The notes under the pieces were generated by a model. That model saw only the letters and a list, made by a program, of their open reading frames with translations, was not told the DNA's origin and ran no database searches. The translations under genes and the position numbers were made by a program. This document shows, one piece after another, positions 1 to 59,329 of a DNA stretch of 60,930 nucleotides; the first letter of the stretch is position 1; each line of letters begins with the position of its first letter. The DNA is from a virus (lineage: Duplodnaviria > Caudoviricetes), in the IMG/VR virus record IMGVR_UViG_3300037119_001810, positions 1 to 60,930 of that record. One strand, 5' to 3'.

Positions 1-821
1 GACGCCAGCCACTCCGCGAACTCGCCCGCCTCGGGGGTGGGCATGAGCGCACCCTCCCAGTGGATCATCCCGTCCTTGCGCATGAGCCGGTCGACCGAGC
101 CCACGGCGACACTGCCGTCGTGCTGCTGGATCGCGTACTTCTGCCACGAGAAGGGCAGCCGGTAGGGGCGGGCCGTCATCGAACCGGCGTTGAAACCGCG
201 CTGGTCGCCCGTCTCAACGTCCTCGGGCGCGAGAATCCCGTGAACGGGGATCGGTCCCGTCAGCAGGTCCGTCATCGTGAGCGCGGGCTCCTCGATGGGG
301 TCGTTCTCGGGTGCGATGTCGGCAGATGCCGCCATGGTGTCCTCCTCGTTTCCAGAAACGCCCCAGACCTTCTCCCAAGGAGTCCCCTCTTGGAGTTCAG
401 GACGAAGATCGTAGTTCTCGATGTCGTCTCGTCCGGCCCATGCTACGGCCTGCACCTCGTCAGTGGGTGTCCAGCCGTCCAGAGGGAACTCGACTGCTGT
501 AGTGACCACGAACGCCTGATACACGCCGTCCTGAGACCGCCAGCCGTCCACAACCGTCGAATCCTCGGGGATTCCCCACCCGGTCTCCTCGATCAGTTCC
601 CGAACGGCCCCTGTGTAGGGCTCCTCGCCCTCATTGAGCCCCCCTCCGGGGATTTCCCACCTCTCCTGCACGTCAGGGGCGTCTGTCTCGTCCATCGCCC
701 GCTGAGCAAGCAGGATTCGCCCCGTGTCGAGAGCCACGATGACTATTCCGGCGTGGGTGACCCCCTCGTAGCCGTCTGAGGCGAAGGTTCGCGCCCTCAT
801 CACGTTCAGAAGCGCCTTCAC
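1..821 (-). CDS. N-terminal part of a Nudix hydrolase / capsid maturation protease fusion (continues at 60930->59486)
   Basis: Manual translation from GTG 821 (GTGA overlap with the portal stop) or ATG 800 is open through position 1. It contains the Nudix box GGLNEGEEPYTGAVRELIEETGW (576-644), then an internal GAGGAGG + ATG 335 and VHGILAPEDVETGDQRGF, in frame with ORF 59486..60907. Confidence 0.8.
   Translation of the reverse strand, partial: MKALLNVMRARTFASDGYEGVTHAGIVIVALDTGRILLAQRAMDETDAPDVQERWEIPGGGLNEGEEPYTGAVRELIEETGWGIPEDSTVVDGWRSQDGVYQAFVVTTAVEFPLDGWTPTDEVQAVAWAGRDDIENYDLRPELQEGTPWEKVWGVSGNEEDTMAASADIAPENDPIEEPALTMTDLLTGPIPVHGILAPEDVETGDQRGFNAGSMTARPYRLPFSWQKYAIQQHDGSVAVGSVDRLMRKDGMIHWEGALMPTPEAGEFAEWLA
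2..127. repeat. Terminal overlap, identical to 60805-60930 (circular assembly)
   Basis: 126 bp at the start match the last 126 bp exactly. The overlap falls mid-ORF, so it is an assembly k-mer overlap rather than a physical terminal repeat. Confidence 0.93.
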
Positions 822-2695
822 GAGCCCTTCACCGCCTGTCGCAGGGCCGCGCGGGTGTACGGCTGGCCGTTGAGGTACAGATCGGTGCAGAGTTGCGCCA
901 GTTGGCGCTCCGTCTCGGCCCTCTGGGCGGCTGAGAGGTCCCCGAACACCGTGTCGGCCAGCGAGAAGTCGAATCCGGGGGCTGTTTCGACCGGGTTGAC
1001 GACGTGGGCCATGTGCGCGGGGGTGGTTCGGTCCTTCTCACGGCCTCGCTTGCCGTTGTTGAGCAGGATGTTGCCTGCCTTCTCCAATGCACGGAGCACC
1101 AGCACCTCGGAAGCGGCCTCTCGGGCACCGAACGGGGCGTCGTGGTGCTCGTGGTCGCCCTGTGGGGGGCCTTGGACGGGGTAGTCCTCGGTGCTCGGGG
1201 GCAGCGCGACCCCCGGCTGGCCGTCTGCGGGGCCGTTTCCAGAAACCACGTCGGGGAAGTGCTGCCCGAGCAGGCGCATGGCCTCGACCATCATCTCCGG
1301 GGACGGCGAGCCCGAGACCATCTTCATCAGGAGATAGCGCTTGAACTCGTTGTCGTCCATCATGTCGCTCTCGGGGTCGAACCCGACCTCGCGCAGGGTC
1401 ACCGCACCGGCCAGCAGGCCACGGGCGTTCAGTTCGAGGGCTTCCTTGGAGCGATCCTGCTTCATCCGGACACTGGTCGGGTCGTAGCCGATCACCTTGT
1501 CCGTGCCCTCGACCGCCGGGCGCAGGAAGGAGACCGTCAGTTGGTGCGCGAAGTCACCCAGCGCGGGGTCAATGTGACCCGCGATGGTCTTTTCCTCCAA
1601 CGCCCACTCGCCCCAGTGGTTGACGTTGCCGCCCCCGGTGCCGGAGCCGGACACCGCGATGCCGGAGGAGCCGAGAATCTGCTCTGGCGTCAGGTCCATG
1701 CCGAGCGCGAACCGGCGGATGGCGTCCGAGCGGAGGATCATCGCCTTGTCGTCAATCTCGGACCAGAACTGGATCAACTTCTTCTGGTCGATTGACCCGA
1801 GCGCATCGGGGGAAGCCATCACGATGCTCGGGAACGACACCTCATCGTCGTCCAACTCCTGCATTCCGGACGCCGCGAGGCTGAGCATGAACTGCTCGGC
1901 CTCGTTCATCGCGGCGATGGCCTCGGCCCCACCCTCCACGGAGTCCGGGGGAGGCGGCGGGAAGGTGATGTTCTCGGGCAGGAACCAGACGCCCGCCGAC
2001 ATGAGCCGTGAGCGGACCTGAGCGAAGATGTGCTTGGTCAGCCACTCGATTTCACGCAGCGTGGTCTGCAGGGAGCGGAACGGGCTCCACGCCTCGCGCC
2101 GGTCGGCGGGGTCCGGGTTCCACAGCCGGATCACCGGGTCTCCCTTGGCGAGGTCCTTGTAGTTGCCGTTGTCCATCCTGACGGACCAGACCTCTTGCTC
2201 GCCTGAGCCGGTCTTGCGGAGTTCGGTGACGGCGACGATTTCCCACAGCGGGGAGAGCGGGTCCTCCTCGTAACCGGGGTCGGTGTCCACCTTGTCGCGT
2301 GCGATCAGGTAGCACTCACCCGCGATGGTGCGGTGGGTCAGGTAGTCGACCAGCAACTTGCGTCGCTCCCGCACCGTGGGCGCGAGTTCTGCGAGGGCAT
2401 CGACCTCCTCACCGGCAGAGACCCACACGGCCTTGCGGTTGAGGGTCTGGGGCTCGGAGATGCCGATTTCGGCGCGGCCCCCGAGCGCAGCGAACAGGGT
2501 GACCGCCTTGCGGGCCTCCCCACAGATGTTGACGTGGCGGTACGCCTCGACCTGCCACGGCTGGGCGATGGAGGCGCGGTCCATGCCCGGCGTCGAGGAC
2601 TTGCGACCGGGCCGAAAGACCTGAGCCGAGGCAGCCGCCGCTGCAGTGATGACCGCTGGCGGGTTTCCAGAAACAGGGGCCTTGGGTCGAGCCAT
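818..2695 (-). CDS. Portal protein
   Basis: 625 aa, between terminase and protease. Motifs IAGECYLI, RLWNPDP..SP, AIRRFALGMDLTPEQILG and NHW..W are typical of actinophage portals. Confidence 0.85.
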   Translation of the reverse strand: MARPKAPVSGNPPAVITAAAAASAQVFRPGRKSSTPGMDRASIAQPWQVEAYRHVNICGEARKAVTLFAALGGRAEIGISEPQTLNRKAVWVSAGEEVDALAELAPTVRERRKLLVDYLTHRTIAGECYLIARDKVDTDPGYEEDPLSPLWEIVAVTELRKTGSGEQEVWSVRMDNGNYKDLAKGDPVIRLWNPDPADRREAWSPFRSLQTTLREIEWLTKHIFAQVRSRLMSAGVWFLPENITFPPPPPDSVEGGAEAIAAMNEAEQFMLSLAASGMQELDDDEVSFPSIVMASPDALGSIDQKKLIQFWSEIDDKAMILRSDAIRRFALGMDLTPEQILGSSGIAVSGSGTGGGNVNHWGEWALEEKTIAGHIDPALGDFAHQLTVSFLRPAVEGTDKVIGYDPTSVRMKQDRSKEALELNARGLLAGAVTLREVGFDPESDMMDDNEFKRYLLMKMVSGSPSPEMMVEAMRLLGQHFPDVVSGNGPADGQPGVALPPSTEDYPVQGPPQGDHEHHDAPFGAREAASEVLVLRALEKAGNILLNNGKRGREKDRTTPAHMAHVVNPVETAPGFDFSLADTVFGDLSAAQRAETERQLAQLCTDLYLNGQPYTRAALRQAVKGS

Positions 2696-3057
2696 CAGTC
2701 GTCATCTCCGTCGTCACCGTCGTGGGCCATCAGGATTGCAGCGAGGTAGGAGGCGGCGAGGATGCCGTTCACGATCCACCACGCAGTGAACGGGATGTTG
2801 TCGTACTGGTTTCCAGAAACCGGGGCGTACACACCGGACAGCAGTCCCCAAGCCACGACGAGGCCGGTCAGCCAGAAGGATGCGCAGTAGCCACAGAAGG
2901 CGAGAATCTGCCAGCCGTTCCCGTCGGTCGCGTCGGCGTACTTGTCGCGCAGCCAGACCACGGGCGGGAACTTGTCCCATGTCGCCAGACGGGTCAGCCT
3001 CGATGCGCTGATGATGGTGGTTGCCACGACGGCGATCCAGTAGAACTCGGTGCTCAC
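2695..3057 (-). CDS. DUF1360-like membrane protein
   Basis: GTG 3057 overlaps the upstream stop. Contains SRLTRL..WD and CGYCASFW plus hydrophobic helices. Confidence 0.7.
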   Translation of the reverse strand: MSTEFYWIAVVATTIISASRLTRLATWDKFPPVVWLRDKYADATDGNGWQILAFCGYCASFWLTGLVVAWGLLSGVYAPVSGNQYDNIPFTAWWIVNGILAASYLAAILMAHDGDDGDDD

Positions 3058-3938
3058 AGGTCTCCTCCGGCTCCTAGGCCCGTTGAAGTTGCACACAGAG
3101 TAGCCGATGCCCGACCGTTCTCGTGCGCGCTGAACGGGACGAACGACGTGTCGCCGTCCATGTTGTCCATGATCTGGTGGATCGCGGCCCAGTCCCGGTC
3201 GTCCTTGCGGACCGACGTGATCCGCTTGCGGCGGTGCCCCAGTTGGGCGCTTGTCTCGTCGGGCTGGCGCATGTCCTCGCAGTGCCACCACGTGCCCGCT
3301 CGGGTGGCCGGACCGACGACGCCGTGCTCAGCCATGTAGCGCGGGGTGATGTACGGGGCCGGGGTCATGCCGCTCTGGTGGATGCGACGGCTCCACTCGG
3401 CGTGCTCGTGCCCACCGGGGCCGAACTCCTCGATCATCCCGCCGACCCGCTCCACCACGGCGCGGTGGGCGTAGAGCATCACTCCACGGGGCCACGTCCA
3501 CGTGGCGTAGCGCTCCCGCTCGGAGGCCATCCGGTGCCCGCCCCAGCAGACCATCGAGTGCGGAATCCCGAGGTCGGTGTGCTTGCGCAGTGCCCGTGCA
3601 GCGAAGGGGTAGGTGTCGTCGTCGCACAGGAACAGGTGCTCGACCGGATTGCCGACGACGCCCATCAGGAGTTCGAGGCCGGTGTTCTTGTTCGCTGCCA
3701 CCCCGAGCCGCCCGTTGTACGGGGCCACCCCGACACGGCGCTGGCCTACCCGGAACACCGAGAGGGTCCAGTCGGACACGGCAGCCACAACACGGGCTGT
3801 CGCGTCCTCGTCGCCATCGACCGTGATGAACATGCAGTCGCCCGGCCCCAGCGCCCGGTCCCAATGCTGCACGGCGGTTTCCAGAAACCCCATCCGGTGC
3901 TCGTCGCCCGTCGTGCTGATCGCCACGCCCTGTCTCAT
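3054..3938 (-). CDS. Glycosyltransferase (GT-A / GT2-like)
   Basis: Motifs GVAANKNTGL, HLFLCDDD (DxD) and VGGMIEEFGPGGHEHAEWSRR. ATG 3938 is coupled to the upstream stop. Confidence 0.75.
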   Translation of the reverse strand: MRQGVAISTTGDEHRMGFLETAVQHWDRALGPGDCMFITVDGDEDATARVVAAVSDWTLSVFRVGQRRVGVAPYNGRLGVAANKNTGLELLMGVVGNPVEHLFLCDDDTYPFAARALRKHTDLGIPHSMVCWGGHRMASERERYATWTWPRGVMLYAHRAVVERVGGMIEEFGPGGHEHAEWSRRIHQSGMTPAPYITPRYMAEHGVVGPATRAGTWWHCEDMRQPDETSAQLGHRRKRITSVRKDDRDWAAIHQIMDNMDGDTSFVPFSAHENGRASATLCATSTGLGAGGDL

Positions 3939-6207: not shown

Positions 6208-6904
6208 CGGGGTCTCCCTCCTGTGGCTGCTCGACGGCGTTTCCAGAAACCACCACCGCGTCGTGTGTCTGCTCGACCGCCTCGTGGATGTCGGACTCCG
6301 GCACGTCGAAGATGTCCATGTTGTATCCGAGCCCCTGACCGGCAGCCAGCGCGTTGACCAGTTTCTCGACGGCCTCGGGTGCGGCCTCGACCTTGACCTC
6401 GGTCTGCGTCGGTGCCTCCGCGCCGTGCAGTTTCGCCATCCGGTCGAGCATCCGCATCACGCGGTCCTGATTCTCCAACTTGTCCCGGTGGGTCGGGTCG
6501 GTCGCCATCGGGTAGTCGGCCTCGATCATCTTCATGTACCGCTCGGAGACCCAGTTGCGGATGTAGGTCCGCAGGGCGGGCTGGTTGCGGATGTACCGCG
6601 CCGCGTCGTTCTGCAGCAGCCGGTCCACCTCATCAGCGCTCGCCCCGATGGACGCCCCGATCTGGGCGAGGCTGTAGCCCGCGATGTGCAGGTTGACGAT
6701 CTGCGCCAGCCGGGCAGCGGTGGCCTGTGCCGCGCTCTGGGCCTGTGCAAGGTCAGCCTCGGCAGCGCGCTCGGCCTGCTTCTTCGCCAGCCGGGCCTGC
6801 TGGGAGGGCGTGCGCACCAGCGCGACCGCCTTGCCCTTCGGTTCAGGAGCGCTCAGGTGGTCGGGCAACAGGTCGGCAAGTTCCTCATCCACTGCCGTGC
6901 TCAT
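6194..6904 (-). CDS. HTH DNA-binding protein, probable terminase small subunit
   Basis: HTH-like LHIAGYSLAQIGASIGASADEV, C-terminal RMAKLHGAEAP, position upstream of terL. Confidence 0.6.
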   Translation of the reverse strand: MSTAVDEELADLLPDHLSAPEPKGKAVALVRTPSQQARLAKKQAERAAEADLAQAQSAAQATAARLAQIVNLHIAGYSLAQIGASIGASADEVDRLLQNDAARYIRNQPALRTYIRNWVSERYMKMIEADYPMATDPTHRDKLENQDRVMRMLDRMAKLHGAEAPTQTEVKVEAAPEAVEKLVNALAAGQGLGYNMDIFDVPESDIHEAVEQTHDAVVVSGNAVEQPQEGDPGEGF

Positions 6905-7106
6905 CGTCCTCACCGTCCTCGGAGTGCTCAGGGTCCTCGGTTTCCAGAAACCCCATCATGCCACGGAACGTCATGGTGGCTGCCATCATCGCGTGCCCGA
7001 AGGCCAGCATCGCCGCTGCGTTCTGCCCGGCAGGAGTCAGCAGGTCCGGCTGATCCGCACGGTCCAGATGCTGCTCTGCCTTCCGGATGTGCTCTGCGGC
7101 GTTCAC
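6885..7106 (-). CDS. Hypothetical protein
   Basis: 73-aa ORF with GAGAGGGAG RBS, coupled to its neighbours. Confidence 0.55.
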   Translation of the reverse strand: MNAAEHIRKAEQHLDRADQPDLLTPAGQNAAAMLAFGHAMMAATMTFRGMMGFLETEDPEHSEDGEDDEHGSG

Positions 7107-7832: not shown

Positions 7833-8087
7833 TCACGCGCCGCCTTCTTCTACGCCGTCTTGGGTGTCGTCCTCGTCCCTCATCCGCCCGCCGGGTGTCC
7901 GGGCCTTGTGCTGCTTCTTCGCCCGGCGCTTCTCGGCAGCGATCACCCGAGAGGTCGCGTCCCGCACGGCAGCGGACCTACTCATCCCGCGCGTGTCCGC
8001 GTACAGGTCCAGATCGGCAGCCTCGCTCACCGTCAGCCGGAGTGTCACGAACTCCGTACGCGGGTCTGTCGTCGTCGGCCAAGCCAT
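7833..8087 (-). CDS. Ribbon-helix-helix (CopG/Arc-like) DNA-binding protein
   Basis: FVTLRLTVSEAADLDLYADTRGMSRSAAVRDA is a beta-strand + two-helix RHH pattern. GGAAGGGG RBS; first gene of the leftward arm. Confidence 0.75.
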   Translation of the reverse strand: MAWPTTTDPRTEFVTLRLTVSEAADLDLYADTRGMSRSAAVRDATSRVIAAEKRRAKKQHKARTPGGRMRDEDDTQDGVEEGGA

Positions 8088-8133: not shown

Positions 8134-8494
8134 CATGAACCGGCCCCCCAGCAGAGTACGCGTGGTATCGCATCCACCAGAGGGCCGATCCGCCTACTGA
8201 GGGGTCTCGGGCTTGCCCCCTGTTCAGCCCCTCCATCTTACCACACGCTGTACCACAACATGGCTCGCGTGCCTGCACTGGGGTTTTGGGATTTTTTGAG
8301 AACGCGGGGTGATCTGGCGTTTCTGGAAACGGGCTGGATCACCACTACAGGGGGTGGGGGCCGGGTACCCGATACTGTGTTACACCATGGGTGGCCTGAC
8401 CAGCCAGAACAGCCATACAGCGTTCGTTACCCCTCTCTTTCTCTCTGGGGCGGCGCGAGGGTGGACAGGGCTAGGTCCTAGCCCTAGGTTTCTG

Positions 8495-9450: not shown

Positions 9451-9632
9451 CACACCCCCGCCACGGTGCGCAGTCCAGTGAGTCGGTGCTAGGTCAAGCA
9501 CCTAGCACCGACTCGGCTGGCTCGGCATACCGCCGGTTTCCAGAAACGACACGAGGGAGGCACGACCATGAACGGATATGACGAGAACGGCTGGCCCGAC
9601 GGCTCGGCCAGCGACGAGGAGTTGAGGCACCC

Positions 9633-9854: not shown

Positions 9855-10590
9855 TCTGGCTCGTGCTGATCGTCGGGGTGACGTGGCTCGGGATCAGGGT
9901 CTAGTGCCGTGGGTGCTAGGCATAGCACCGGCCACAGTGGCACGGTGCCCAACCAGACCGGATCATCGGACCGGGCGGCGTACCCGCACCGCACCCGGCA
10001 AGCCCTACGGGACGGTGCTCTGGAGTCTGAGCCTGACCTGCCAGTGGAGGGGGTGCGCCTCGGTCTTGACTGCGAGTCGGCTCCTCGTGTTGTGAGGGAG
10101 GGCCGCTACGCTCCGCCCTTCAAGCCCTACCGGTACGGCGACTCGGGGCTCCTCGCTGATCGCGCTGCGGCTCTGAGCCCCGATCCTAGCGATCCTGTCA
10201 AGTGCTAGACCTAGCACTGCTCTGAACAGGGCGAGGGTTTCTGGAAACAAGACACGGCTCCCCGCCATAGTCCCGTGCCGTCCGAGGGGGCTCACTGTGT
10301 CCGTCGAGTGGCGGCGAGTGGTCTCCCTCGGTTCCGACCCCGCCGCCCGCCGGACGTTCCGCCCCCGGACCGTCGACCGCTTCGCAGCCGACTCGGCTAG
10401 CCTGAGTCTAGCACACGCCACCTAGTAAAATGGGTGCTACACCTAGCACCCCCAACCCCAGAGAGGCAGGCTCCGATGCCCGCAACGCTCGACCCCACCA
10501 CCGCTGCGCACCCCGCTGCAGCCACCATCTACCTGTGCGAGATTGCCCGCAACGCGGCGATCCTCGCCTACCGCAGGGCACGGCGCTGAC

Positions 10591-10946: not shown

Positions 10947-11295
10947 TGCGCCGGGTCATCGTGGCACTGGCCTATCTGACGGGCCGCACCCTTGGCAGGG
11001 TCAGCGTGAAGGTCCTGCCGCCCCGATAGTTTCCGGAAACGGTGCTAGGTCTAGCACCGAGCGGACGTAACGCATGATGGACCGACACCCTGAGCGACGG
11101 CGCTAGGCATAGCACCGGGACTGCTGGGGTCGGCCCATCGTGTGAGTCGCCCGACTCGAACCACCCTTCCATCCATCCAACAGAGGGAGGTGCCGTCATG
11201 TACGACACCACACTGAACAACCCGGCGGACATCCCGCTGGACGAGGTGCTGGCCGACATCCGTCGGGGCCAGTGGACAGACAAGGAGAACAAGGC

Positions 11296-11478: not shown

Positions 11479-11643
11479 GGACCGCCGTGCATGGCACCGA
11501 ACTGGTGCTACTCCTAGCACTGGCCGTGCCCGTGCTGGTCGGTACCGTGCTGACCGGCTGGTCCTACGTCCGGATGGCGCTGGCCCGCTAGTTTCTGGAA
11601 ACCCAACCCGGTGCTACGTCTAGCACCAGAAAGTGAGAGCACC

Positions 11644-11964: not shown

Positions 11965-12356
11965 TGATCCCGGCAGGTACTCCGCCGGGGCAGGAGCCGG
12001 GTGCTATCCGTAGCACCACCCCGATTGCCGACCGCATCGAGGCGGTGTCCACGGTACCCGTGACCCGGACGCCTCTCGTCGGCCCGACCGAGGACGACCT
12101 GCGCGCCGCCCTGCAGGGGTGGGGACAGTGAGCCGGTTCGGGTGGCTCGTGTTCTGGGCGGTGTGGATCACCATGCTCGTCGTGCTGTGGGGGATGCTCG
12201 GCTGCTCGACCGAGACGCCCTGCTGATCCGGAGGTAACGCTCGACTGTCGGTGCTGGGTGCTATGCCTAGCACCGACAGTGGAGTGAGTCACCCGGCTCG
12301 TGAGTTTCCAGAAACGCTCAACGGTTGAGCGTCCAACAGAAAGGGAGGTGCGTGCT

Positions 12357-13089: not shown

Positions 13090-13288
13090 AACTGGGGGTA
13101 GACAAGCCCCGCATGTTGTATTACCGTATGACCCTACGGGATGCAACACAGAGGTCGAGTGGCTGAACCGTCAGGCTGGTGCTAGGTCAAGCACCCAGTA
13201 CCAGCAGGGCGGGGGGCATCTCGGCTCCAACCCGAGGAACCCCGGACCGTCCGGGTTTCCAGAAACATCCAGAGAAAGAGAGTCCACC

Positions 13289-14242
13289 ATGGACAGCACC
13301 AACAGCAGCACCCCCGTCGACCTGATGGCGACGGACACGGAGGGCGAGAAGTCCTTCGACAAGGGCACGTGGCAGGAGGCGCTGCAGCGCAGCGCGAACC
13401 TGCTCGACCGCTCGACCAAGGCGCGCAAGCAGGCGTCCTCGCTGCTCTGGACTGGCGCGCAGACCGCCATCGAGGAGTGGCTGCCCGGTGCCGACACCGA
13501 CGTGTCGGGCGAGAACCTGTACAACGAGGTGCTCGACATCCTCGGCAAGCCCCGCAAGGGTGACGCCTCCAAGGTGCGCACCGTCGCGGTCGCCGTCAAG
13601 GACCACGGGCTGGTGCTCACCATCCACCCCAACCTGTCCAAGGCGTACGCCGAGGCCGTTCGTCTGACCAAGACGAAGCAGGTCCACGAGGACGAGGACA
13701 CGGCGGCGGACAAGGCCATCGAGGCGCTGGCGGAGAACATCCCGCACAGCACCACGACGGTCGAGGGTGCGGCGCTGATCCTGCTGAGCAAGGGGATCGA
13801 CGGCGCGGTCGTCGCCATCCTCGACGCTCTCGGTCACGGCAACGAGGCGGCTCACCGCTCCTTCATGCGAGCGGTGTCCACCGAGATTGCCGCTCGGGTG
13901 CAGGCCGCGAAGCCGAAGCCCGCGCCGAAGGCACCGGCCACGGCGAAGGGTTCGGCCAAGCCCGCCACGGGGTCGTCCCCCAAGGCGGCGGTCAAGACCG
14001 CTGGCACCAAGGCCAAGCCCGCCAAGGGCACGAAGGCGAAGCCGGTCCCGGTCTCGTCCTCGAAGGGTGACCCGAACAAGCGGGCGCTCCCGGCCAAGGC
14101 CAAGCCCGTCCAGCCCGCCACGGCGGACAAGGGCGCGCCGATCAGCGAGCCCGTCGAGGCGGGTCACGAGGCGGTCGACACCCCGACCGTCCCGGTGAAG
14201 CAGGCCGCGACGAAGGCCAAGCCGGTCGTCGTCAAGCGCTGA
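13289..14242 (+). CDS. Putative DNA-binding protein with histone-H1-like Lys/Ala/Pro tail
   Basis: 317 aa; helical N-domain followed by AKPKPAPKAPATAKG...TKAKPAKGTKAKP repeats. Confidence 0.7.
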   Translation: MDSTNSSTPVDLMATDTEGEKSFDKGTWQEALQRSANLLDRSTKARKQASSLLWTGAQTAIEEWLPGADTDVSGENLYNEVLDILGKPRKGDASKVRTVAVAVKDHGLVLTIHPNLSKAYAEAVRLTKTKQVHEDEDTAADKAIEALAENIPHSTTTVEGAALILLSKGIDGAVVAILDALGHGNEAAHRSFMRAVSTEIAARVQAAKPKPAPKAPATAKGSAKPATGSSPKAAVKTAGTKAKPAKGTKAKPVPVSSSKGDPNKRALPAKAKPVQPATADKGAPISEPVEAGHEAVDTPTVPVKQAATKAKPVVVKR

Positions 14243-14295: not shown

Positions 14296-14347
14296 AGCCA
14301 CCCGGCTCGTTTCCAGAAACATCCATCCAACAGAAAGTGAGGCCGCC

Positions 14348-14710: not shown

Positions 14711-14759
14711 GGGGTATCCAACACAGCAGGGTTTCCAGAAACCCCGCAGAAAGTAGGTC

Positions 14760-15740: not shown

Positions 15741-16072
15741 TGAGTGCTACGCCTAGCACCCCGGTTTCCAGAAACCGGCGGTTCGCCCGCAGGTACCGCA
15801 TGTTCGACAAGGTGAACGGCGTCGAGCAGAACCTCCACGGTGAGGTGGTCAACGGTGAGTTCGTTGACGCCTACACCACGCTCGCCACCCGTGCGTTCTT
15901 CATCAACCTCGGCGGGACCGAGGAGATGCGCCGGACCAAGGGCGGGGTGATCGTGTGCAAGTCGGTCAGCCCGCCCCACGAGGACGGCACGCACACCGTA
16001 CGGGAGGCCCGGTTCATCCCGCTGGGCGACGACGACCTGCCACTGCCCATCACCCGAGGGAAGGCGCTGTGA
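15737..16072 (+). CDS. Hypothetical protein
   Basis: Coupled ORF; its N-terminus is encoded by both palindromic motifs in tandem. Confidence 0.65.
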   Translation: MMSATPSTPVSRNRRFARRYRMFDKVNGVEQNLHGEVVNGEFVDAYTTLATRAFFINLGGTEEMRRTKGGVIVCKSVSPPHEDGTHTVREARFIPLGDDDLPLPITRGKAL

Positions 16073-16275
16073 TGCTGCGTACTCACCTGTCCTACAAGGG
16101 CCGCTCGATGAAACGGGTGCTGGTCATGGACATCACACCTGAGCACACCGACGAGGAGGTGCTAGCCGTAGCACTCGTCGCTGCTCGGGAGGACAAGTCC
16201 AGTCTGTTCGGTTGGACCATCACGCCGAACCCGGACGACGCAACCCACGCTGTCGTCACCATGCACACCGACTAG
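16072..16275 (+). CDS. Hypothetical protein
   Basis: TGATG coupling, 67 aa. Confidence 0.6.
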   Translation: MLRTHLSYKGRSMKRVLVMDITPEHTDEEVLAVALVAAREDKSSLFGWTITPNPDDATHAVVTMHTD

Positions 16276-16311
16276 TTTCCAGAAACATCCATTCCAACAG
16301 GAGGTACCACC

Positions 16312-18462
16312 ATGAAGGGCTTGAAGCAGATGGTCCAAGAGGCCGTCAAGCAGAGCACAGAGCAGGAGCAGGAGCAGGCTCCGGTGCAGGTCACCGACGA
16401 CGCACGCCGGGCGCTGTCCATGCAGATGCGGCAGTGGTCCGGCTGGGCCAACAGCGTCATCGAGTTCGGTGACCCGCGCAAGAAAGGAATGCCGTCGCCG
16501 TTCGCTGCGTGTGACCACCACAAGCGCAGGTTCCACGCCAACATCGACCGGCTGGTGCTGAACCCGAACCGGGTGCTGTTCACCGTCACCCCGTTCCGGC
16601 TGAGGCAGGAGGCGGTGCTGACCGGCGCGCTGCTGCACGAGGCGGGCCACGCCCGGTACTCGCACTGGCAGCCGAGCAGGTACGGCAACCCCGACGTGCT
16701 GCTGCACAACGACGGCGAGCCCGCCACCGCGCAGTGCGTGGCGCTCGCCCGGCTGATGGAGGAGCCCCGGATCGAGGGGCTGATGACCCGTGACGCCGAG
16801 AGGATCGGTGCCGGGTCGCTCGACTGGACCATGCGGGCCAGCGCTGCGCACCTCGCACCGATGACCACGCTGGCGACTGACCCCGGCCAGCGGATCATGG
16901 ACCTCATCACCTCGTGGGCGCTGAGGGCTGGTCGGCAGTACGCCATCCAGCACTGGGACAGCGACCACAGGACACGCAACTGGGTGTCCGACTTCACCTC
17001 GCTGCTGACCATGAGCATCGAGGCGCACCTGACCGACCTCGAAGCCAAGGGTGCGGACACGAAGCCGAACATGCACGCTCGGTTGATCGTGACGGGTCTG
17101 ATCGGGATGACCAGCATCGAGGACAACACCGGGTCGCTGATGATCGACAACGCTCGTGCGATCCTCGACCTGCTGTTTCCAGAAACCGACGAGGACGACG
17201 AGGACGGCAAGCCCGAGCCGATGCCCGGCGGGGACTGCGCCGAGCAGGAGCCCGAGGAGCAGGAGGACAGCGAGCCCGAGCAGGGTGAGGCTGAGCCCGA
17301 GAAGTCCGAGGACGAGCAGGCCGACGAGGCTGAGCAGTCTGATGAGGGTGAGCCCGGCGACGATGAGGCTGAGGCTGACGAGGGTGAGCCCGGCGAGTCT
17401 GAGGGTGAGGACGGTGAGTCCGACGAGGGCGAGCCGTCCGAGGATGACGCCGAGGGTGAGGGCAAGGGCGAGGGTGAGGGTGACCCTGAGTCCGAGGGTG
17501 AGGGCGAGGGTGAGGGTGCTACGTCTAGCACTGGCGAGCCCGACGACGAACTCTCCGAGGCGCTGCGCCAGATGGAGGAGGCAGCCAAGGACGAGTCCGC
17601 CGAGGAGGCGGGCGAGGAGGCCGAGGAGTCCGAGGTTTCCGGAAACGGGGCGGGCTCCGGCGGTGGCGGCGGTGGTCAGGGCGGCTACCGCAACCCGACC
17701 AAGGAGGAGCGTGACATCCAGAAGGGTGCCGAGCGATTCCTGCGGGACATGATCGCACCGAGCGAGTCGTCCATCGTGACGCTCACTGACACCCCGTCCT
17801 CGACGGTCAACGGTGCGGCGCTGTCGGCGTGGAAGGCAGGCGGGCAGGTCAAGGCTCCGCACTTCTTCGAGCGTACCCGCCGTGAGGTCGAGCCCTCCCC
17901 GCCGGTCAAGGTGGCGATCCTCGTGGACGTGTCGTCCTCGATGGGCTCACTGCAGAAGCCGAGTTCGGTCCTGTCGTGGGCACTGGCAGCGGCGGCGCTG
18001 GACCTGCGGAACTTCGCCGGTCGCGGCCAGCAGATCGAGTCGTGCATGATCCACTGGGGCAGCAGGTCCGAGGTGATCCAGCGCAACGGGCAGATGATGC
18101 CGGGGATCAAGGAGTTCGCCTGCGATCAGGGCACCTCCGACATGCACGGTGCGATGGCGCTGGTGGAGGAGCAGATGCCGGGGTTCTTCGATGTCTCCGA
18201 GACTCCGGTCAACCGGCTGCTCGTGCAGTTCACCGACTGGGAACTGTTCGGTCGCCAGCAGGTCACGCCGTGGATCGAGCGGGCGCTGGGTGTGGGGGTC
18301 AACATGCTGACCGTGGCCCCGAGGGACTACTCCCCCCGCCGCTCCGACCTCGAACAGATCCTGTCCGATGTCAAGGTGCAGCGGGGCACGTCGAGCCTGC
18401 TGAGGTACGACGAGGCGAAGCCGGATCAGGTGTGGCAGCACGCGGCGGAGGTGCTGTCGTGA
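16312..18462 (+). CDS. Metallopeptidase-like (HExxH) / acidic linker / VWA-domain protein (CobT-like partner of MoxR)
   Basis: LLHEAGHARYS, MEEPRIE, long Glu/Gly/Asp linker, MIDAS ILVDVSSSM...GT...FTD. Confidence 0.85.
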   Translation: MKGLKQMVQEAVKQSTEQEQEQAPVQVTDDARRALSMQMRQWSGWANSVIEFGDPRKKGMPSPFAACDHHKRRFHANIDRLVLNPNRVLFTVTPFRLRQEAVLTGALLHEAGHARYSHWQPSRYGNPDVLLHNDGEPATAQCVALARLMEEPRIEGLMTRDAERIGAGSLDWTMRASAAHLAPMTTLATDPGQRIMDLITSWALRAGRQYAIQHWDSDHRTRNWVSDFTSLLTMSIEAHLTDLEAKGADTKPNMHARLIVTGLIGMTSIEDNTGSLMIDNARAILDLLFPETDEDDEDGKPEPMPGGDCAEQEPEEQEDSEPEQGEAEPEKSEDEQADEAEQSDEGEPGDDEAEADEGEPGESEGEDGESDEGEPSEDDAEGEGKGEGEGDPESEGEGEGEGATSSTGEPDDELSEALRQMEEAAKDESAEEAGEEAEESEVSGNGAGSGGGGGGQGGYRNPTKEERDIQKGAERFLRDMIAPSESSIVTLTDTPSSTVNGAALSAWKAGGQVKAPHFFERTRREVEPSPPVKVAILVDVSSSMGSLQKPSSVLSWALAAAALDLRNFAGRGQQIESCMIHWGSRSEVIQRNGQMMPGIKEFACDQGTSDMHGAMALVEEQMPGFFDVSETPVNRLLVQFTDWELFGRQQVTPWIERALGVGVNMLTVAPRDYSPRRSDLEQILSDVKVQRGTSSLLRYDEAKPDQVWQHAAEVLS

Positions 18463-18746
18463 GCAGGGTTTCCAGAAACGACACACCTACTAGGGAGCCC
18501 CGCCCGCTCACCAAGAGCGGGTGGGGGGTGCTGCTCCGTGCGGTGAGCGCTGACATCAAGGCAGCCGAGATGCTGTACGCCTCCGCTGACCTGCTCACCA
18601 AGGGGCGCAACGCTACCGACCGCGCCTACAACCGAGCCGTGGTGGACCTGACCACCCGGCTGCTCGACCTGCCAACCGACCCCGAGGTGATGGAGCACGT
18701 GCTCCGGAACCTGCCTGACTACGACGCACCGAAAGAGAGCAAGTGA
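18459..18746 (+). CDS. Hypothetical protein
   Basis: GTGA overlap, 95 aa. Confidence 0.6.
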   Translation: MSRVSRNDTPTREPRPLTKSGWGVLLRAVSADIKAAEMLYASADLLTKGRNATDRAYNRAVVDLTTRLLDLPTDPEVMEHVLRNLPDYDAPKESK

Positions 18747-41872: not shown

Positions 41873-44800
41873 TCAGGGGAGCCTTCCCACTACTTCGTTC
41901 AGCACCTCGTTGGCGACGGCCATCGGGTCCTCGGTCGGGGTGTTGACCACGAGGTCGCGGAACATAGGCCCGCGCTCGTTTCCAGAAACCCCCGGACCAC
42001 CCGCCGGAGGAGGTCCGCCGCCGGGGTTGATGGAGATGAACCGGGCCAGCGCCTCGCTGGCGTTTCCGACCTTGACGTGCTGGTCCTGCAGGCCGAGCAC
42101 AGCGCCGTCGCCCACGTCTCCCATCATGGCCCGCAGGACACGGGACGGGGACGCGATGCCGAGGGCTCGCTTGATCTGTGCGGCGATGCTGACACCGAGG
42201 TTGTAGGCAGCCGCGTCGAGGTGGGCCGACAGGCTGGTGAGGCCGTCCACGAGACCCTGCGCAGCGTCCACACCGGCCTGATACATCCGGCTGCTGGTCT
42301 CGTCCCCGAGGGTGTCCGCGATGCTGTTGATCTGGCCGACCAGCGAGTTCACGTTCTGGATGGAGCCGTTGCCGCCGCTGAGCAGTGCCTCCGCGAACGT
42401 CGAGCCCTGCTCGACCCCGGCGTCCACGATCTGCTTGTACGCGTCGTTGGACAACCCCTGAGCCAGCAGCAGTTTGAGGTTGGTCTGGAACGCCTTGATC
42501 TTGTCGAGCCGGGTCTGCAGGTTCGACGTGATGTCGGTGGCCGTGAGCGCCTGCTCCACCCCCGCGATGCTCTGCGCCTGAGCGGAGAGCAGGGAGCCGA
42601 ACGACTTGATCGACTCGGCCACCTGATTGCGGTAGTCGTCGCGCATGGCGATGGCGTCCTGCAACTTGCTGTTCGCATCCGACAGCATGTCGGCCAGCCG
42701 TTCGCGCGCCTCTGCGAACTCCGCCAGCGTGACGTTGGTCGTGGCGAGTCCGGCCAGCATCCGCTGGACGTTGGACTCCTTGATGACCCGCTGCGTGTTG
42801 AGGATCTGTGCGGCCCTGTTGAGCCGGGTCTGGTTGGCGAGCGCGGCCTTCAAGTCCCGCTGCGCCGCCTTCACCTTCGCCAGCGCCACCTTGGCAGCCT
42901 TCTTGCTGGTCGCGTTGGCGAGACTCGACGCGGCGCTGTTGAGGGCAGAGCGGGCGGTGTTGACGGACTCCGCCCCGCCGGTCGTGAGGTTGCCCATCAG
43001 GGTGTTGAGCGAGTCCTGCACGTTGCTGCCACCGGAAGCCCTCGCGGCGTCCTGCGCACCCTTGGCCGCTGCCTTGTTCAGCGTGAGCATCGCGTTCTTG
43101 ATCTGCGACGAGACCGACGGCCCCTGCTTGATGAGCGAGTTGGCCCACTTCTTCCACGGGTTGCGCCACTGCTTCTTCGGCTTGTACCCACCACGGTCAA
43201 TCGACGTTGCGTTGAGCGCGTCCAGCCCGAGCGACTGCAACTTGGGCATCGTGAACTTCGGCATCTCCGGCATCTGGAACGACTGCGAACCGAGACCCGA
43301 CGCGGCGAGCAGGGAGTTCCCGATGGAGAACGCCGCCGCACCGACGCGCTGAGCGGTCCGCTCGGCGGAGTCACCGACCACGCCGAAGGCCGCTGAGAGA
43401 ACCTGCAGCGGACCCATGGCAATCGACAGAGCCTTGGGGAGCGCCCACCCGATCACGCTGACCAGCGGCCCGAGCAACTGGGTGATGATGTTGATGATGG
43501 TGGCGAGGTGGCCCAACCCGTCCCCGACGCCCTTGATGACCCCGGAGTTGTAGAGCGAGATGAACGCGTTGCCTATCGCCTCGATGACGGCCCACAGTTG
43601 GGAGCCGAACTGGATGGCGTCGTTGAACCACCGCTGCAGCGAACCGTCGGCCTGCGCCCTCGTGATGGCGTCGGTGAAACTCTGGAACTTCCGGGACATG
43701 GCGTCAAAGACCGTGTTGCCTGCGGTCATCGCCTCCGGCGAGAACAACAACTTGCCGATGAACTCACCGAAGTCCCTGACGAAGCCCCACAGGGACTTCA
43801 ACGACAGGACCGCACGGTCAACGAACGTGGTGATGGCGTTCTGCCCCTGCGCCGAGGTGGCCCAGTTGGAGAAGCGCTCCCCGACCTGCGCGAGGTAGCC
43901 CGCGAACTGGTTGATGTACGGCATGAGCGCGGAGAACACACCCATCAGGCCGTTGAGGAAGCCACCGAGCGCCGTTGCCAGCCGGGTGACGATGCTGGGG
44001 AGGTAGACGGCGAGCGACTGCGAGAACATCTGGAAGCCCGGCCCCGACAGCGAGGCGGTGATGATGTTGCCTGCCTCAGCGAACGCCTTGCCCATGACCT
44101 GCGCCACCGGCACCGCCTGCATCAGCGCCTTCTGCAGGTTCATCGACCACGTGTCGAAGGCAGGAACCATGTCCTCCAACATGATCTGCCCGAGGCCGAC
44201 CATCTCCTCCTTCAACGGCCTGAACGCGGAGTCGAGGAGTTCCTTCTGCGCGTCGGTCATCGACATGAACGCGTTGGTCAGCAGGCCCCCGGCGATGACC
44301 ACGGTCCCGATGATCCCAGCGAGCCCGATGAGGCTGGCAACGAGAGCGCCCGCGATGGTGGCGGCAAGCGCTGTGACGAGGCCGAGCAGTGCGCCAACCA
44401 CGGAGGCCATCATCGCAAGAGCGACGACGACGATCCCGATGGCAGCGGCAGCCGCCGGACCGGACTTCGCCAGCCCCGCCATGAACCCGGCCCCGCCGCT
44501 GCCCATGCCAGCGAAGCCGCCCATCACCTTCTGCAGGAAGGACGCGTTGCTCGCAACCGAGGAGAACCCCGTGGTGAACGTCCCGAACATCTTGCCTGCG
44601 CCCTTGGTGACCTTGTCCATGATGCCGACCATGCCGCCGAGGGTCCTGCCGAAGATGTTGAGGAAGTTGTTACGCGAGTGCGCACCGAACAACCGACCGA
44701 TCCTGTCGGACAGGTCGCGTTCCTGACGGCCCCCGAGACCGCCCCCTCGGTTTCCAGAAACCCCGCCCCTGCCGATCAGGCCCTCGGCCTCCATGACCTT

Positions 44801-45906: not shown

Positions 45907-45972
45907 GGGAGTCTCCTTCTCTAGTGGGAACCCTAACGTGTCGTACGGTACCACGGTTTCCAGAAACCACGA

Positions 45973-47029: not shown

Positions 47030-47551
47030 CTACACCTCCACGTCGAAGGTCCAGACGCCGCCGTACTCAGGACCCAGTGGCCCGGAGGGGGTCCACGTGC
47101 CGGAGTCGATGGAGTCCCAGACCTCGCACGCCATGGCAGCGCAGTAGATCGCCCGCATGTCGCTCATCGCCTGCAGGGCAGCGACGAGTACGTCCTGCGC
47201 GGTGGGTGCCGCTCCCTCCTCGGGGATGTCGAGGCAGCGCAGCACGCCGACTTCGAGGGTCAGTCTCATCACGGCCCCGCAGTCGCCGTCATCGAACGAC
47301 GGAGCCTTGTACTGAGGCGCAGCGCCCATCACCCGGACCCACGCCTGCGAGCACATGGCCGCGTCGTCAGGGCATTCGTCCTCGGGGTCGGGGTCGAAGG
47401 GAACGTAGGTCTCACCGATGGTCAGGCCGTACGAGCAGATGTCGGCCAGCGCCTCACCGATGCAGCCGGTGAACCCGACCAGTGCCTCGTGCAACTTGTC
47501 GTCGGCTGTCTCGTCCGAGGAGAGGTTTCCAGAAACCGGGGTCTCGCTCAT
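47030..47551 (-). CDS. Tail terminator-like protein
   Basis: CSQAWVRV, LEVGVLRC, GP.GP..GG.W; position. Confidence 0.6.
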   Translation of the reverse strand: MSETPVSGNLSSDETADDKLHEALVGFTGCIGEALADICSYGLTIGETYVPFDPDPEDECPDDAAMCSQAWVRVMGAAPQYKAPSFDDGDCGAVMRLTLEVGVLRCLDIPEEGAAPTAQDVLVAALQAMSDMRAIYCAAMACEVWDSIDSGTWTPSGPLGPEYGGVWTFDVEV

Positions 47552-49518: not shown

Positions 49519-49575
49519 CACGTACCACCTTCCGTCATGCACACTTTAGCAGTGACCCGGTTTCTGGAAACCCGG

Positions 49576-49938: not shown

Positions 49939-49972
49939 GTCGTGCTCCTTCTCGGTTTCTGGAAACTGCCGG

Positions 49973-51301: not shown

Positions 51302-51350
51302 CGTCTATCTCCTGTTTCTGGAAACCCGTTGTGACACAGAGTACAGCAGT

Positions 51351-53557: not shown

Positions 53558-53589
53558 GGTTTCCAGAAACCTCTCTGCTACTAGGACGA

Positions 53590-55523: not shown

Positions 55524-55551
55524 GGGGCTGGGTTTCCAGAAACCCAGCCCC
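55524..55551 (-). terminator. Hairpin after the major capsid gene with the 12-bp motif at its centre
   Basis: GGGGCTGGGTTTC-CA-GAAACCCAGCCCC. Confidence 0.6.
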
Positions 55552-57337: not shown

Positions 57338-57476
57338 GGCCGGTGTCCCTTCTAGACCTTGGCTCTGGACTGGGTTGACAAGTTCAGGGTGTTGCAGAGG
57401 TCGAGGGCACCTAGGCTCCTACGCGGCTGACCGTAGCACACGTTTCTGGAAACGCGCTAGGGATCGGCACGGATTG

Positions 57477-58487: not shown

Positions 58488-59329
58488 ACCGCTTGTCCTC
58501 CATAGATGATCCACGGGCTGGTGTCCGCTGCGTCTCCACCGTCGATCACGTCGGCGGAGGTAACACTAGCGCTTCCCCCGTAGATTACGTCCTCGGTCTC
58601 TTGGATTCCGGCAACCTCGGCGGGTGGCAGACCAGTGGTCAGTGCAGTCCGGAACAGGGTGTTTCTGGAAACCACCTCGACCAGCCGCTCGTGCGGGCCT
58701 TCCAGATCATAGGGGCCGACGCCCCAGCGCGGCACCTTCCGGGCCTGAGCCCGGCGCAGGTTGAATGACACGAGGCCGTTCTTGAACTCGAATCCGGAGA
58801 TGTAGCCGCCCTTCAAGTACGGGAACACCGTGTAGCCGTACTCACGCACACCGTCGATGCACGCGGTCCCGGCCAACTTCGACCAGACCTCCATGCCGAA
58901 CGACGCAGCCGGGCGACGGGTCTCGGAGTCGAAGCCGACCACCGGGTTCTCGCCGTCCTCGGGGAGCACCCCGCCGAACGGGCTCGACCCGAACGGGGCC
59001 TCACCGAAGCCGAGCAGGTCGCCACGTTGGGTGATGAGCGGCACTCCGGCGACGAGGCTGAGGACACCGGGGTCGACGCGCAGAAAGTCGATGTCGATGG
59101 AGTAGTTGATGACCTGATCCGGGCGGACGAAGTGCAGCCGGTTGTCGTTGTCGTTCTCCTCGCTGCCCAGCAACTCGTTGGACCCGGCCTCGGTGGACTC
59201 GTTGACCGTCACCTTGGCGACCGACTTCGAGACGGCGAAGTTGATTGGGTGCGGGATGCTCCCTCGCCGGTCCAGCCCGGTGACGCGCAGCGCAGAGCCG
59301 CGCACCATGGCGTAGCACCTAGTGGTCAC
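58484..59329 (-). CDS. Second, divergent major-tail-protein paralogue
   Basis: Aligns by eye with 53639-54337 (TT.CYA.VRGS..RVT.LD, VDP...SL..G.P, VVGFD, EVWS..AG.AC, GYTVFP.LKGG, WGVGP.D). Confidence 0.75.
   Translation of the reverse strand: MTTRCYAMVRGSALRVTGLDRRGSIPHPINFAVSKSVAKVTVNESTEAGSNELLGSEENDNDNRLHFVRPDQVINYSIDIDFLRVDPGVLSLVAGVPLITQRGDLLGFGEAPFGSSPFGGVLPEDGENPVVGFDSETRRPAASFGMEVWSKLAGTACIDGVREYGYTVFPYLKGGYISGFEFKNGLVSFNLRRAQARKVPRWGVGPYDLEGPHERLVEVVSRNTLFRTALTTGLPPAEVAGIQETEDVIYGGSASVTSADVIDGGDAADTSPWIIYGGQAV

Follow-up and report, generated by a model that had tools for sequence, protein, structure and literature searches.

Short repeats dispersed along a replicon have been described in several settings. 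Systems of the parS and RK2 kind use one to a dozen sites, the stoperators of Cluster A mycobacteriophages are asymmetric, oriented with transcription and tied to the immunity repressor of a temperate phage, and Chi and DNA uptake sequences are features of host genomes that are asymmetric and read on one strand. Here we describe a 12-bp palindrome, GTTTCYRGAAAC, that recurs along the whole of a 60,930-bp virus genome of the Caudoviricetes (IMG/VR record IMGVR_UViG_3300037119_001810; 66% G+C, completeness estimate 99%), which was analysed at its full length and is referred to as the window or source genome. The nearest described counterpart is the 17-bp palindrome TGTTCGG-N3-CCGAACA of Cluster O mycobacteriophages, present as 34 exact and three one-mismatch copies; its function is unknown, and its discoverers considered that dimers probably bind it and that a part in transcription is unlikely (PMC4351075). 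On plasmid RK2, a replicon of ~60 kb, KorB, a symmetric helix-turn-helix (HTH) protein, reads dispersed sites and acts over a kilobase range by sliding, and the KorA operator core is a 12-bp palindrome that starts with GTTT and ends with AAAC (PMC11790492).

We counted 53 exact copies of the 12-mer in the window, as compared with 0 in 100 dinucleotide-preserving shuffles, the first at 348 and the last at 58661-58672. The two central bases are CA at 33 sites, TG at 12, CG at 8 and TA at 0. A first-pass annotation had claimed at least 53 copies with this same division of centres, and the exact recount returned identical coordinates. On the plus strand of the source genome CA centres exceed TG centres by 33 to 12, in both the leftward and the rightward arm into which third-position G+C divides the genome. 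Only four non-exact copies were found (two with one mismatch and two with two), against 2.9 expected for all matches with up to 2 mismatches; since these number about the chance level, the 12-mer appears as an all-or-none element. The near-matches listed in the first pass at 21261, 30246 and 34490 are real, with 2, 1 and 1 mismatches, respectively.

30246..30257: one-mismatch copy GTTTCTGGAATC, in a 1830-bp gap; possibly a weak or decayed site
34490..34501: one-mismatch copy GTTTCTGGAATC, the same variant as at 30246
21261 and 58604: two-mismatch copies

Both one-mismatch copies share GAATC in place of GAAAC, and both lie within longer-than-average gaps.

The sequences flanking the sites are unrelated, save for a preference for G before and C after, by which the palindrome is lengthened to 14 bp. 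The repeated unit is therefore a word of 12-14 bp and not a longer element. Isolated half-sites are depleted, with 30 found against 42.6 +/- 5.2 in 200 synonymous shuffles (P = 0.005), a hint that it is the pentamer which is recognised. A typical site folds as single-stranded DNA at only -0.5 kcal/mol, and this rules out a hairpin reading of typical sites. The site at 55532 is the only one in a strong hairpin, where it forms the tip of a terminator-like stem of -15.7 kcal/mol (55520-55555) just 3' of the capsid gene, much as it had been described before. Because independent assemblies from several samples carry the motif, it is not an assembly artefact.

The first-pass annotation had proposed a codon-preserving shuffle and a comparison of spacing with random placement, and both give a clear result. 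In 300 runs of a synonymous-codon shuffle the mean was 0.40 copies and the maximum 3, compared to 33 sites within called genes. The peptides that the site encodes are correspondingly frequent: VSGN occurs 13 times against 0.24 expected, VSRN 4 times, FPET 7, FLET 3 and FQK 6, and all but one of the 34 such occurrences are encoded by the 12-mer itself. Selection is thus on the DNA and not on the proteins, and it is strong enough to write VSGN, FPET and FQK into polymerase, portal, tail and helicase proteins.

The mean gap between sites is 1121 bp and the largest is 2772 bp, in keeping with the earlier statement that no gap exceeds ~2.8 kb, and both arms are evenly covered. The coefficient of variation (CV) of the gaps is 0.49 in the source genome and 0.34-0.50 over five genomes (the source genome and four relatives, G001-G004); for each of the five, 0 of 20,000 simulations of random placement were as even as the observed sites. 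When pooled, the 212 gaps show a single peak at 0.8-1.4 kb, and few are shorter than 400 bp. Within the window, 34 of the 53 sites lie inside called open reading frames (ORFs) and 19 between them, while 11 more are no further than 30 nt from an ORF end. A site is found within 30 bp of 23% of gene boundaries, compared to 5.4% of random positions. About 23 sites lie deep within genes, apparently placed to fill gaps, and long genes carry one or two each. The sites prefer cheap positions, yet the pattern is what a need for one site in every kilobase or so would produce. There is nothing consistent in the orientation of sites relative to gene strand or transcription. Of four sites that had been placed just upstream of ribosome-binding sites (RBSs), those at 40626 and 51314 are indeed intergenic and just upstream of starts; in the present gene calls the site at 348 falls in an ORF and that at 49955 in an ORF overlap, which makes their placing upstream of an RBS less certain.

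The four relatives were found by scanning IMG/VR for the motif pattern and form, with the source genome (G000), what we call lineage A. Their whole records contain 50 copies in 62.1 kb, 48 in 64.0 kb, 37 in 49.4 kb and 29 in 41.2 kb. All are syntenic with the source genome, at ~70% nucleotide identity over about half its length. At this level of identity, 52 of 66 aligned sites are exact and in the same place (22/24 in G001, 14/18 in G002, 12/17 in G003 and 4/7 in G004); in two of the aligned cases counted as missing, the copy is merely displaced, by 3 and 11 bp. CA, CG and TG centres replace one another at orthologous sites, full flips included, and so the central pair is simply pyrimidine-purine and the site is functionally palindromic. 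All eight CG-centre sites of the source genome lie in the rightward (replication) arm, at 11029-33360, as do 15 of 16 across G000-G003. The ends of homology blocks fall within 30 bp of a site in 10.4% of cases, compared to 23% for gene boundaries. Block ends are thus no more frequent at sites than the gene-boundary effect predicts and give no indication of recombination hot spots, and the idea that the sites are recombination junctions was rejected because block ends are no closer to them than gene boundaries are.

The 53 exact matches to GTTTCYRGAAAC are given below with their central bases, their gene context in the ORF calls of this analysis and, where one applies, the peptide that results when the site is read in frame. 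A minus sign marks genes on the minus strand.

348..359: CA; in the end-spanning ORF; VSGN; kept in G001
1235..1246: CA; in the portal gene 818-2695(-); VSGN; kept in G001 and G004
2663..2674: CA; 21 nt within the called 5' end of the portal ORF; kept in G001 and G003
2809..2820: CA; between called ORFs; no counterpart in G001-G003
3877..3888: CA; in the glycosyltransferase-like gene 3054-3959(-); FLET
6239..6250: CA; 3' part of the TerS-like gene 6194-6913(-); VSGN
6940..6951: CA; in a small called ORF, 6885-7106(-)
8319..8330: TG; low-coding region between the arms
9536..9547: CA; intergenic; RBS-like stretch and ATG after it
10237..10248: TG; weakly coding region
11029..11040: CG; intergenic; abuts an 18-bp GGTGCTA-N4-TAGCACC palindrome
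11591..11602: TG; intergenic; 9 nt ahead of the called start at 11611
12304..12315: CA; called 5' end of 12300-12809
13255..13266: CA; 22 nt upstream of the ATG at 13289 (lysine-tailed protein); CG in G001
14309..14320: CA; intergenic; upstream of 14348
14731..14742: CA; intergenic; 18 nt ahead of the AAA_5 ATPase gene
15764..15775: CA; 5' end of 15737-16072; VSRN
16275..16286: CA; intergenic; 26 nt ahead of the HExxH-vWA gene
17175..17186: CA; in 16312-18462; FPET
17635..17646: CG; in 16312-18462; VSGN
18468..18479: CA; 6 nt past the stop of 16312-18462
19338..19349: CA; 5' end of 19332-20075; VSRN
20049..20060: TG; 3' end of 19332-20075; VSGN
20593..20604: CG; in 20486-20842; FPET
21801..21812: CA; 3' end of 21243-21818; VSRN
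22700..22711: TG; in the DUF2800 nuclease gene; FLET; kept in G001-G004
23510..23521: CG; in the DUF2800 gene; FPET; CA in G001 and G003
24562..24573: CA; 3' end of 24306-24593; FQK
25836..25847: CG; intergenic; ahead of the Enc34-type single-stranded DNA-binding protein (SSB) gene
26712..26723: CA; intergenic; 17 nt ahead of 26740
27579..27590: CA; in the DNA polymerase A gene; FQK; kept in G001-G003
28929..28940: TG; in the DNA polymerase A gene; FWK; kept in G001-G004
29647..29658: CA; intergenic
31477..31488: CG; in the SNF2 helicase gene; VSGN; CA, CG or TG in relatives
32273..32284: CG; variable C-terminal part of the HTH-like gene 31859-32452; VSGN
33360..33371: CG; 5' end of the helicase gene 33352-34386
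34803..34814: CA; in 34627-35163; FPET
35484..35495: CA; 5' end of 35459-35671
36526..36537: CA; 3' end of 35850-36557, where the two arms meet
37681..37692: CA; in the tail gene 37285-40608(-); VSGN; no counterpart in G001-G003
39382..39393: CA; in 37285-40608(-); VSGN
40626..40637: TG; intergenic, between 40639-41871(-) and the start of 37285-40608(-); kept in G001-G003
41978..41989: CA; in the candidate tape-measure gene 41873-45244(-); VSGN
44750..44761: CA; in 41873-45244(-); VSGN
45956..45967: CA; gene junction; TG in G001 and G002
47525..47536: CA; 5' end of 47030-47551(-)
49560..49571: TG; gene junction
49955..49966: TG; overlap of two called ORFs; RBS-like stretch and ATG after it on the minus strand
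51314..51325: TG; intergenic; 13 nt ahead of the endolysin gene start
53559..53570: CA; gene junction
55532..55543: CA; tip of the terminator-like hairpin 55520-55555 after the major capsid gene
57442..57453: TG; intergenic; upstream of the capsid gene start
58661..58672: TG; in 58484-59422(-); VSRN

The same half-sites occur in a second group of phages, lineage B, represented by G005 (58.1 kb, with terminal repeats) and G006 (a 37.5-kb fragment). By BLASTP and hhsearch profile-profile comparison, only five proteins are common to this lineage and the source genome, namely the AAA_5 ATPase and its HExxH-vWA partner, the DUF2800 nuclease, the SSB and PrimPol; SNF2-type helicases are encoded in both lineages. 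G005 carries 24 GTTTC-N1-GAAAC and 17 GTTTC-N2-GAAAC sites (CV 0.61, P = 3e-4), and G006 has 14 sites of the same half-site type. All eight G006 sites that fall in aligned blocks are also sites in G005, and at one such place an 11-mer in G006 stands where G005 has a 12-mer, so whatever reads the site accepts either spacer. Within G005 and G006 the 11-mers are mostly in the early arm and the 12-mers mostly in the structural arm.

Each lineage B genome additionally holds one canonical parS, in unrelated flanks (G005, L133:4935-4950, 15/16 of the consensus; G006, L257:7593-7608, 16/16). This suggests that lineage B makes use of ParB, probably that of the host, and it strengthens the likeness to parS half-sites, through the shared GTTTC pentamer, to which the first pass had pointed. 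In the source genome and G001-G004 we find 0 parS matches with up to 2 mismatches and 0 occurrences of GTTTC-N4-GAAAC, and all 53 source-genome sites have a 2-bp spacer between the pentamers, compared to 4 bp in parS. A distant phage, G008, shares the AAA_5/vWA pair and has 0 copies of the motif, which means that the pair does not track the motif. G008 (an unrelated phage fragment of 51% G+C) has, at ~10-36 kb (L262-L264), 43 exact copies of an asymmetric 14-mer of its own, GAAAAAACGAATAC, mostly in one orientation, clustered between small genes with hairpins after the copies, and promoter-like.

The search of bacterial genomes bears on Actinomycetota, the phylum to which the host (not identified) most likely belongs, and says no more than that the motif is not characteristic of this phylum in general. 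Among 401 genomes drawn evenly from it (including the unpublished G027, G129, G345 and G352; counts only), 92 contain the motif, never in more than 4 copies, similar to a reversed-pattern control, and the element is phage-private in this sense. The host search that had been proposed is thereby answered for the phylum and not for the host. A one-genome-per-species scan gave at least 120 matches, every one listed being a single copy. A full-text literature search for the 12-mer strings returned primers and eukaryotic sites only, and the motif is not in print within the literature searched. In the closest isolate, Curtobacterium phage Kithara (63,447 bp), positions 1-50,000 hold 0 copies and no GTTTC..GAAAC site. 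Over the same part (L136, 1-50000), Kithara carries a 16-bp palindrome of its own, GTTCAGTGCACTGAAC, at several sites, with overlapping k-mer counts of 6-12.

Comparisons of the source genome with named phages by megablast and tblastn gave no close relative; the nearest are Curtobacterium, Microbacterium, Gordonia and Mycobacterium phages, at 32-39% amino-acid identity, and matches to the endolysin are too weak for naming a host. The phage sequence occurs in soil-metagenome contig sets only, with no RNA set among those listed. The gene layout is as follows.

36554-60930 and 1-8100: leftward arm; structural, packaging and lysis genes
~9000-36557: rightward arm; replication/early genes (AAA_5 ATPase, HExxH-vWA, DUF2800, SSB, DNA polymerase A, SNF2, PrimPol, helicase)
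818-2695, minus strand: portal
4101-5765, leftward arm: TerL
6194-6913, minus strand: TerS-like gene
14760-15740, rightward arm: AAA_5 (MoxR-like) ATPase
16312-18462: HExxH-vWA protein, 716 aa, with an invariant HExxH and a C-terminal vWA MIDAS motif
22014..23972, plus strand: DUF2800 (Cas4/RecB-like) nuclease, common to the second lineage; candidate if the sites act like Chi
25891-26649, rightward arm: Enc34-type SSB
32425..33309, plus strand: PrimPol, one of the five proteins common to the second lineage; candidate if the sites serve priming
33352-34386, rightward arm: helicase
37285-40608, minus strand: tail gene
41873-45244, minus strand: candidate tape measure, 1123 aa, called from size and position only
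49973-51301, leftward arm: endolysin
55559-57337, leftward arm: major capsid

A minus-strand ORF (3-821 plus 59486-60907), with a NUDIX domain and a head-morphogenesis-like part, seems to span the ends of the record. It is contiguous in the relative G001, and the genome is therefore circularly permuted or circular. The glycosyltransferase-like gene at 3054-3959 (minus strand) sits between the portal and terminase genes. The AAA_5 ATPase and HExxH-vWA pair is kept in both motif lineages and in G008; the HExxH-vWA protein has more than 160 homologues in metagenome assemblies, several on ~60 kb contigs, and has no Pfam family, and its profile found no relative in the species genomes.

The search for a protein that might read the sites returned three candidates.

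13289..14242, plus strand: early protein; N-domain all-alpha and conserved, tail rich in lysine, alanine and proline
7833..8087, minus strand: ribbon-helix-helix (RHH) protein of the CopG family, 84 aa, with a basic tail; its RHH_1 score of 20.5 bits equals the Pfam cut-off
31859..32452, plus strand: HTH-like protein, just upstream of PrimPol

The Pfam scans covered the submitted ORFs, and many small ORFs and most early proteins are without any family. Among the submitted ORFs no Pfam match to ParBc was obtained, and a regex search found no motif resembling an arginine-rich box. The protein scans likewise returned no HNH or GIY-YIG protein, and neither an integrase nor an immunity repressor was seen among the scanned proteins. 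A weak PHROG match to 'ParB-like partition protein' (E 2e-4) falls on 6194-6913; this product was rejected as a ParB candidate because it reads better as TerS, and for the same reason the first-pass proposal of 6194-6904 as a binder is not upheld. For the protein of 13289-14242 there are at least 159 homologues, the best 120 of them at 55-90% identity and several on ~60 kb contigs, and the model of its N-domain is confident (pLDDT >90 for most of residues 21-130). When its sequence and profile were compared with solved structures, a weak RbcX match was all that emerged, and the ESM Atlas gave only leads below 0.9 (DUF3102, DUF6192). Similar lysine/alanine/proline-rich C-terminal tails are also seen in the Enc34-type SSB (25891-26649) and in a 350-aa protein of the structural arm (45973-47025). 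The HTH-like protein has a low-confidence fold (pLDDT 66) and no significant structure match.

We tentatively favour, at somewhat less than an even chance, a reading in which the sites, evenly distributed, are where a symmetric, sequence-specific protein binds or is loaded in order to organise or mark the chromosome as a whole. GTTTC-YR-GAAAC would be a phage-private, functionally symmetric cis-element on duplex DNA, and its two inverted GTTTC half-sites (the parS pentamer) would be read by a two-fold symmetric sequence-specific protein. Selection would keep one site per ~1.2 kb along the whole chromosome, and the organising or marking protein would act ~1 kb outward from each, so that the whole genome is covered; the purpose may be compaction, positioning or recognition as self. 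Such a logic would resemble that of ParB at parS, or of KorB with KorA on RK2, and would differ from that of promoters or local operators. The palindrome and its palindromic flanks, the lack of orientation and of a hairpin, the depletion of half-sites and the parS pentamer argue for a symmetric protein on duplex DNA, and the even spacing together with the absence from the sampled bacterial genomes argues for something that reaches all of the phage chromosome and only that. From this we infer that a protein binds the sites, presumably as a dimer and with action at a distance; candidate readers would be the products of 13289-14242, of the RHH gene 7833-8087 and of the HTH-like gene 31859-32452, or a host ParB-family protein.

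Several observations weigh against such a protein. A change of spacer by 1 bp is awkward for a rigid dimer, and all-or-none exactness is commoner among the sites of enzymes than among those of binding proteins. The 401-genome sample may miss the host. No ParB-family, KorA-like, methylase or nickase protein was found by Pfam, PHROGs and NCBIfam scans with regex checks. The N-domain of 13289-14242 has no match to a DNA-binding fold (Foldseek none at E<=0.001; VIA Z<=6.2, to generic helical bundles), and the protein has no detectable homologue in lineage B; indeed, none of the three candidate readers has a detectable lineage B counterpart. The proteins that are common to both lineages are only those of replication/recombination and the AAA_5/vWA pair, which favours an enzymatic reader.

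Enzymatic roles (priming, nicking or Chi-like action) were absent from the first-pass annotation and fit several of the facts equally well. The main alternative, a serious one that we consider somewhat unlikely, is that the sites are cis-elements of phage replication or recombination, serving as priming or helicase-loading sites (PrimPol and helicase), as nicks or as a phage-private Chi. Site-specific nicks are a feature of T5- and tf-type phages, where the virion DNA is interrupted on one strand at a consensus sequence. In the Chi-like form the site would stop the DUF2800 nuclease and SNF2 helicase, such that phage DNA is spared and motif-less host DNA degraded. It accounts well for the proteins that the lineages share, which are only DUF2800, the Enc34-type SSB, PrimPol, AAA_5 and its vWA partner, beside SNF2-type helicases in both. 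A spacing of 0.8-1.4 kb with few long gaps suits lagging-strand priming or a limit to degradation, the all-or-none exactness and the absence from host-phylum genomes fit an enzyme that separates self from host, and circular permutation would let ends fall anywhere, hence the need for a bidirectional signal everywhere. PrimPols with a defined template sequence do exist, NrS-1 being an example (PMC8718748). However, known primase and Chi signals are short, asymmetric and read on a single strand, for which a strict palindrome of 12-14 bp is unneeded, and a pentamer-specific primase would meet ~43 chance GTTTC half-sites, whereas isolated ones are depleted and not used. The ends of homology blocks show no enrichment at sites beyond the gene-boundary effect, and the protein scans found no nickase/HNH gene. 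In short, a replicative role explains the gene sharing and the exactness, and explains the palindrome poorly. A related idea, which we hold to be unlikely, is a private 'self code', in which a short-spacer palindrome derived from parS, kept every ~1.2 kb, has a dedicated reader that loads on, coats or spares the phage chromosome alone; this might be a protein that forms a clamp or a coat, or a phage helicase-nuclease that uses the site as a bidirectional Chi.

Reading by a host protein is improbable. Here the sites would recruit or soak up a host factor, likeliest ParB, so as to load the segregation/condensin machinery or to starve the host chromosome. The half-sites equal parS pentamers with a spacer of 2 (or 1) and not 4, G005 and G006 have one canonical parS each in unrelated flanks, the motif is common to two unrelated phage lineages as if set by a shared host factor, and no phage ParB turned up in the protein scans. 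Set against this, lineage A, including the source genome, lacks any parS-like site with up to 2 mismatches, and a spacer shorter by 2-3 bp rotates the half-sites by ~70-100 degrees relative to one another, which ParB would have to tolerate. Titration, which the first pass had listed among the possible roles, requires copy number and not even spacing or positional conservation, and so fails to explain the spacing; a dedicated host paralogue would lead us to expect many chromosomal sites, where no more than 4 are seen in any of the 401 genomes (host not identified). Distinctly improbable, too, is a genome-wide transcriptional silencing or timing system in which a small phage repressor, for example an RHH protein, blocks elongation or initiation. 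The crowding of sites around genes speaks for it (19 of 53 between ORFs and 11 more within 30 nt of an ORF end; 23% of gene boundaries with a site within 30 bp, compared to 5.4% of random positions; several sites 13-28 nt upstream of start codons), as do the RHH gene at the head of the leftward arm, the arm bias of 11-mers and 12-mers in lineage B and the 15 of 16 CG centres in the replication arm of lineage A. But the sites are unoriented relative to transcription, ~23 of them lie deep in genes and seem to fill gaps, no integrase or immunity repressor is among the scanned proteins, and the genome has a separate operator-like motif, GGTGCTA-N4-TAGCACC; for a similar repeat, the Cluster O authors thought a transcriptional role unlikely (PMC4351075). 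Highly improbable, finally, is a reading in which a DNA modification or restriction-type enzyme targets the motif, or in which the motif is a functionless by-product of mutation or gene conversion. The motif's exact palindromic form is like that of a restriction site, and CG is under-used as a centre (8 of 53), perhaps through avoidance of CCGG-type targets. Such targets are, however, normally avoided and not enriched, evenly spaced or kept at ~70% flank identity, a regex check found no methyltransferase motif, the unit, at 12 bp and with unrelated flanks, does not qualify as a mobile element, and the motif's presence in independent assemblies means that it is no assembly artefact.

The operator-like motif is a second palindrome of 18 bp with 24 copies at up to 2 mismatches, 23 of them within 8967-17532 and one at 30360. 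It is clustered, degenerate and often beside a 12-mer site, with 15 copies in G001, 0 in G002 and G005, 3 in G003 and 2 in G004 (fragments), and it looks like an ordinary operator or RNA-hairpin set. In view of this clustered operator-type palindrome, the RHH protein (7833-8087), the HTH-like protein (31859-32452) and 13289-14242, the earlier remark that no repressor is evident was too strong.

If a chromosome-organising or marking protein does read the sites, then the per-kilobase reading of a viral chromosome would amount to a new principle, either of how phage genomes are organised or of how self is discriminated from host. A self code, if true, would be a sequence-based self/non-self system in a virus without base modification, found in at least two unrelated lineages and tolerant of 11- or 12-bp forms. 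The motif would also give a simple sequence signature for a large uncultivated soil phage family. Dispersed invariant palindromes of the Cluster O type are on record without a function, and new constraints on any mechanism follow from the present data: the even spacing of ~1.2 kb, a half-site found in two unrelated lineages with a spacer of 1 or 2 bases, and a parS pentamer that occurs alongside a true parS in one lineage.

Comparison with known systems shows partial likeness to several of them. Cluster A stoperators, too, are tens of near-identical short words spread over an actinophage genome, in their case of ~50 kb, genes included. The present sites are unlike stoperators in being symmetric, unoriented and evenly spaced, and the difference in symmetry and orientation that the first pass had drawn is borne out by centres that swap and by the lack of any orientation; integrase and immunity repressor were not seen, and one RHH protein is present. 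As with Chi and uptake sequences, we see exact short words, one per one to few kilobases, that may be a mark of self and are tolerated in genes; unlike these, the 12-mer is palindromic and not enriched in the 401 Actinomycetota genomes. Noc-binding sites (NBS) differ in that tens of them are dispersed over the host chromosome and read by a host ParB paralogue, whereas no more than 4 copies of the 12-mer are found in any of these host-phylum genomes (host not identified). REP/BIME elements are extragenic, 20-40 nt long and form stable hairpins, whereas the present element has 12 bp, lies in ORFs at 34 of 53 sites and folds at -0.5 kcal/mol. The half-site pentamer is identical to that of parS, a 16-bp palindrome, but with a spacer of 2 (or 1) and not 4, and 53 evenly spread sites stand in place of one or a few that are clustered.

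The KorA operator core of RK2 is a 12-bp palindrome of the same outline as ours, and the KorB operator has a single central base like the lineage B 11-mer (PMC11790492). In contrast to the RK2 and ParB systems, no ParB- or KorA-family gene was found in the source genome. The Cluster O repeat also differs, in sequence and in length, and only two weak tblastn protein matches link the source genome to Corndog of that cluster. Corndog (65% G+C) has 1 site per 2.0 kb, half the density seen here, and its 34 sites are not evenly spaced (CV 1.07, P = 0.77), with many crowded at the right end; it is also annotated with a ParB-like nuclease-domain protein, of which none was found in the source genome. 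The likeness to the Cluster O repeat nevertheless extends to the invariant arms, the variable unoriented centre, the tens of copies, the positions between genes, near 5' ends and inside genes, the conservation of most sites among relatives and the absence from hosts (PMC4351075). Overall, the element is real, strongly selected, conserved and unusually regular, it is of the same poorly understood kind as the Cluster O repeat, and it stands a fair chance of representing a novel means by which phages organise their DNA or recognise it as their own.

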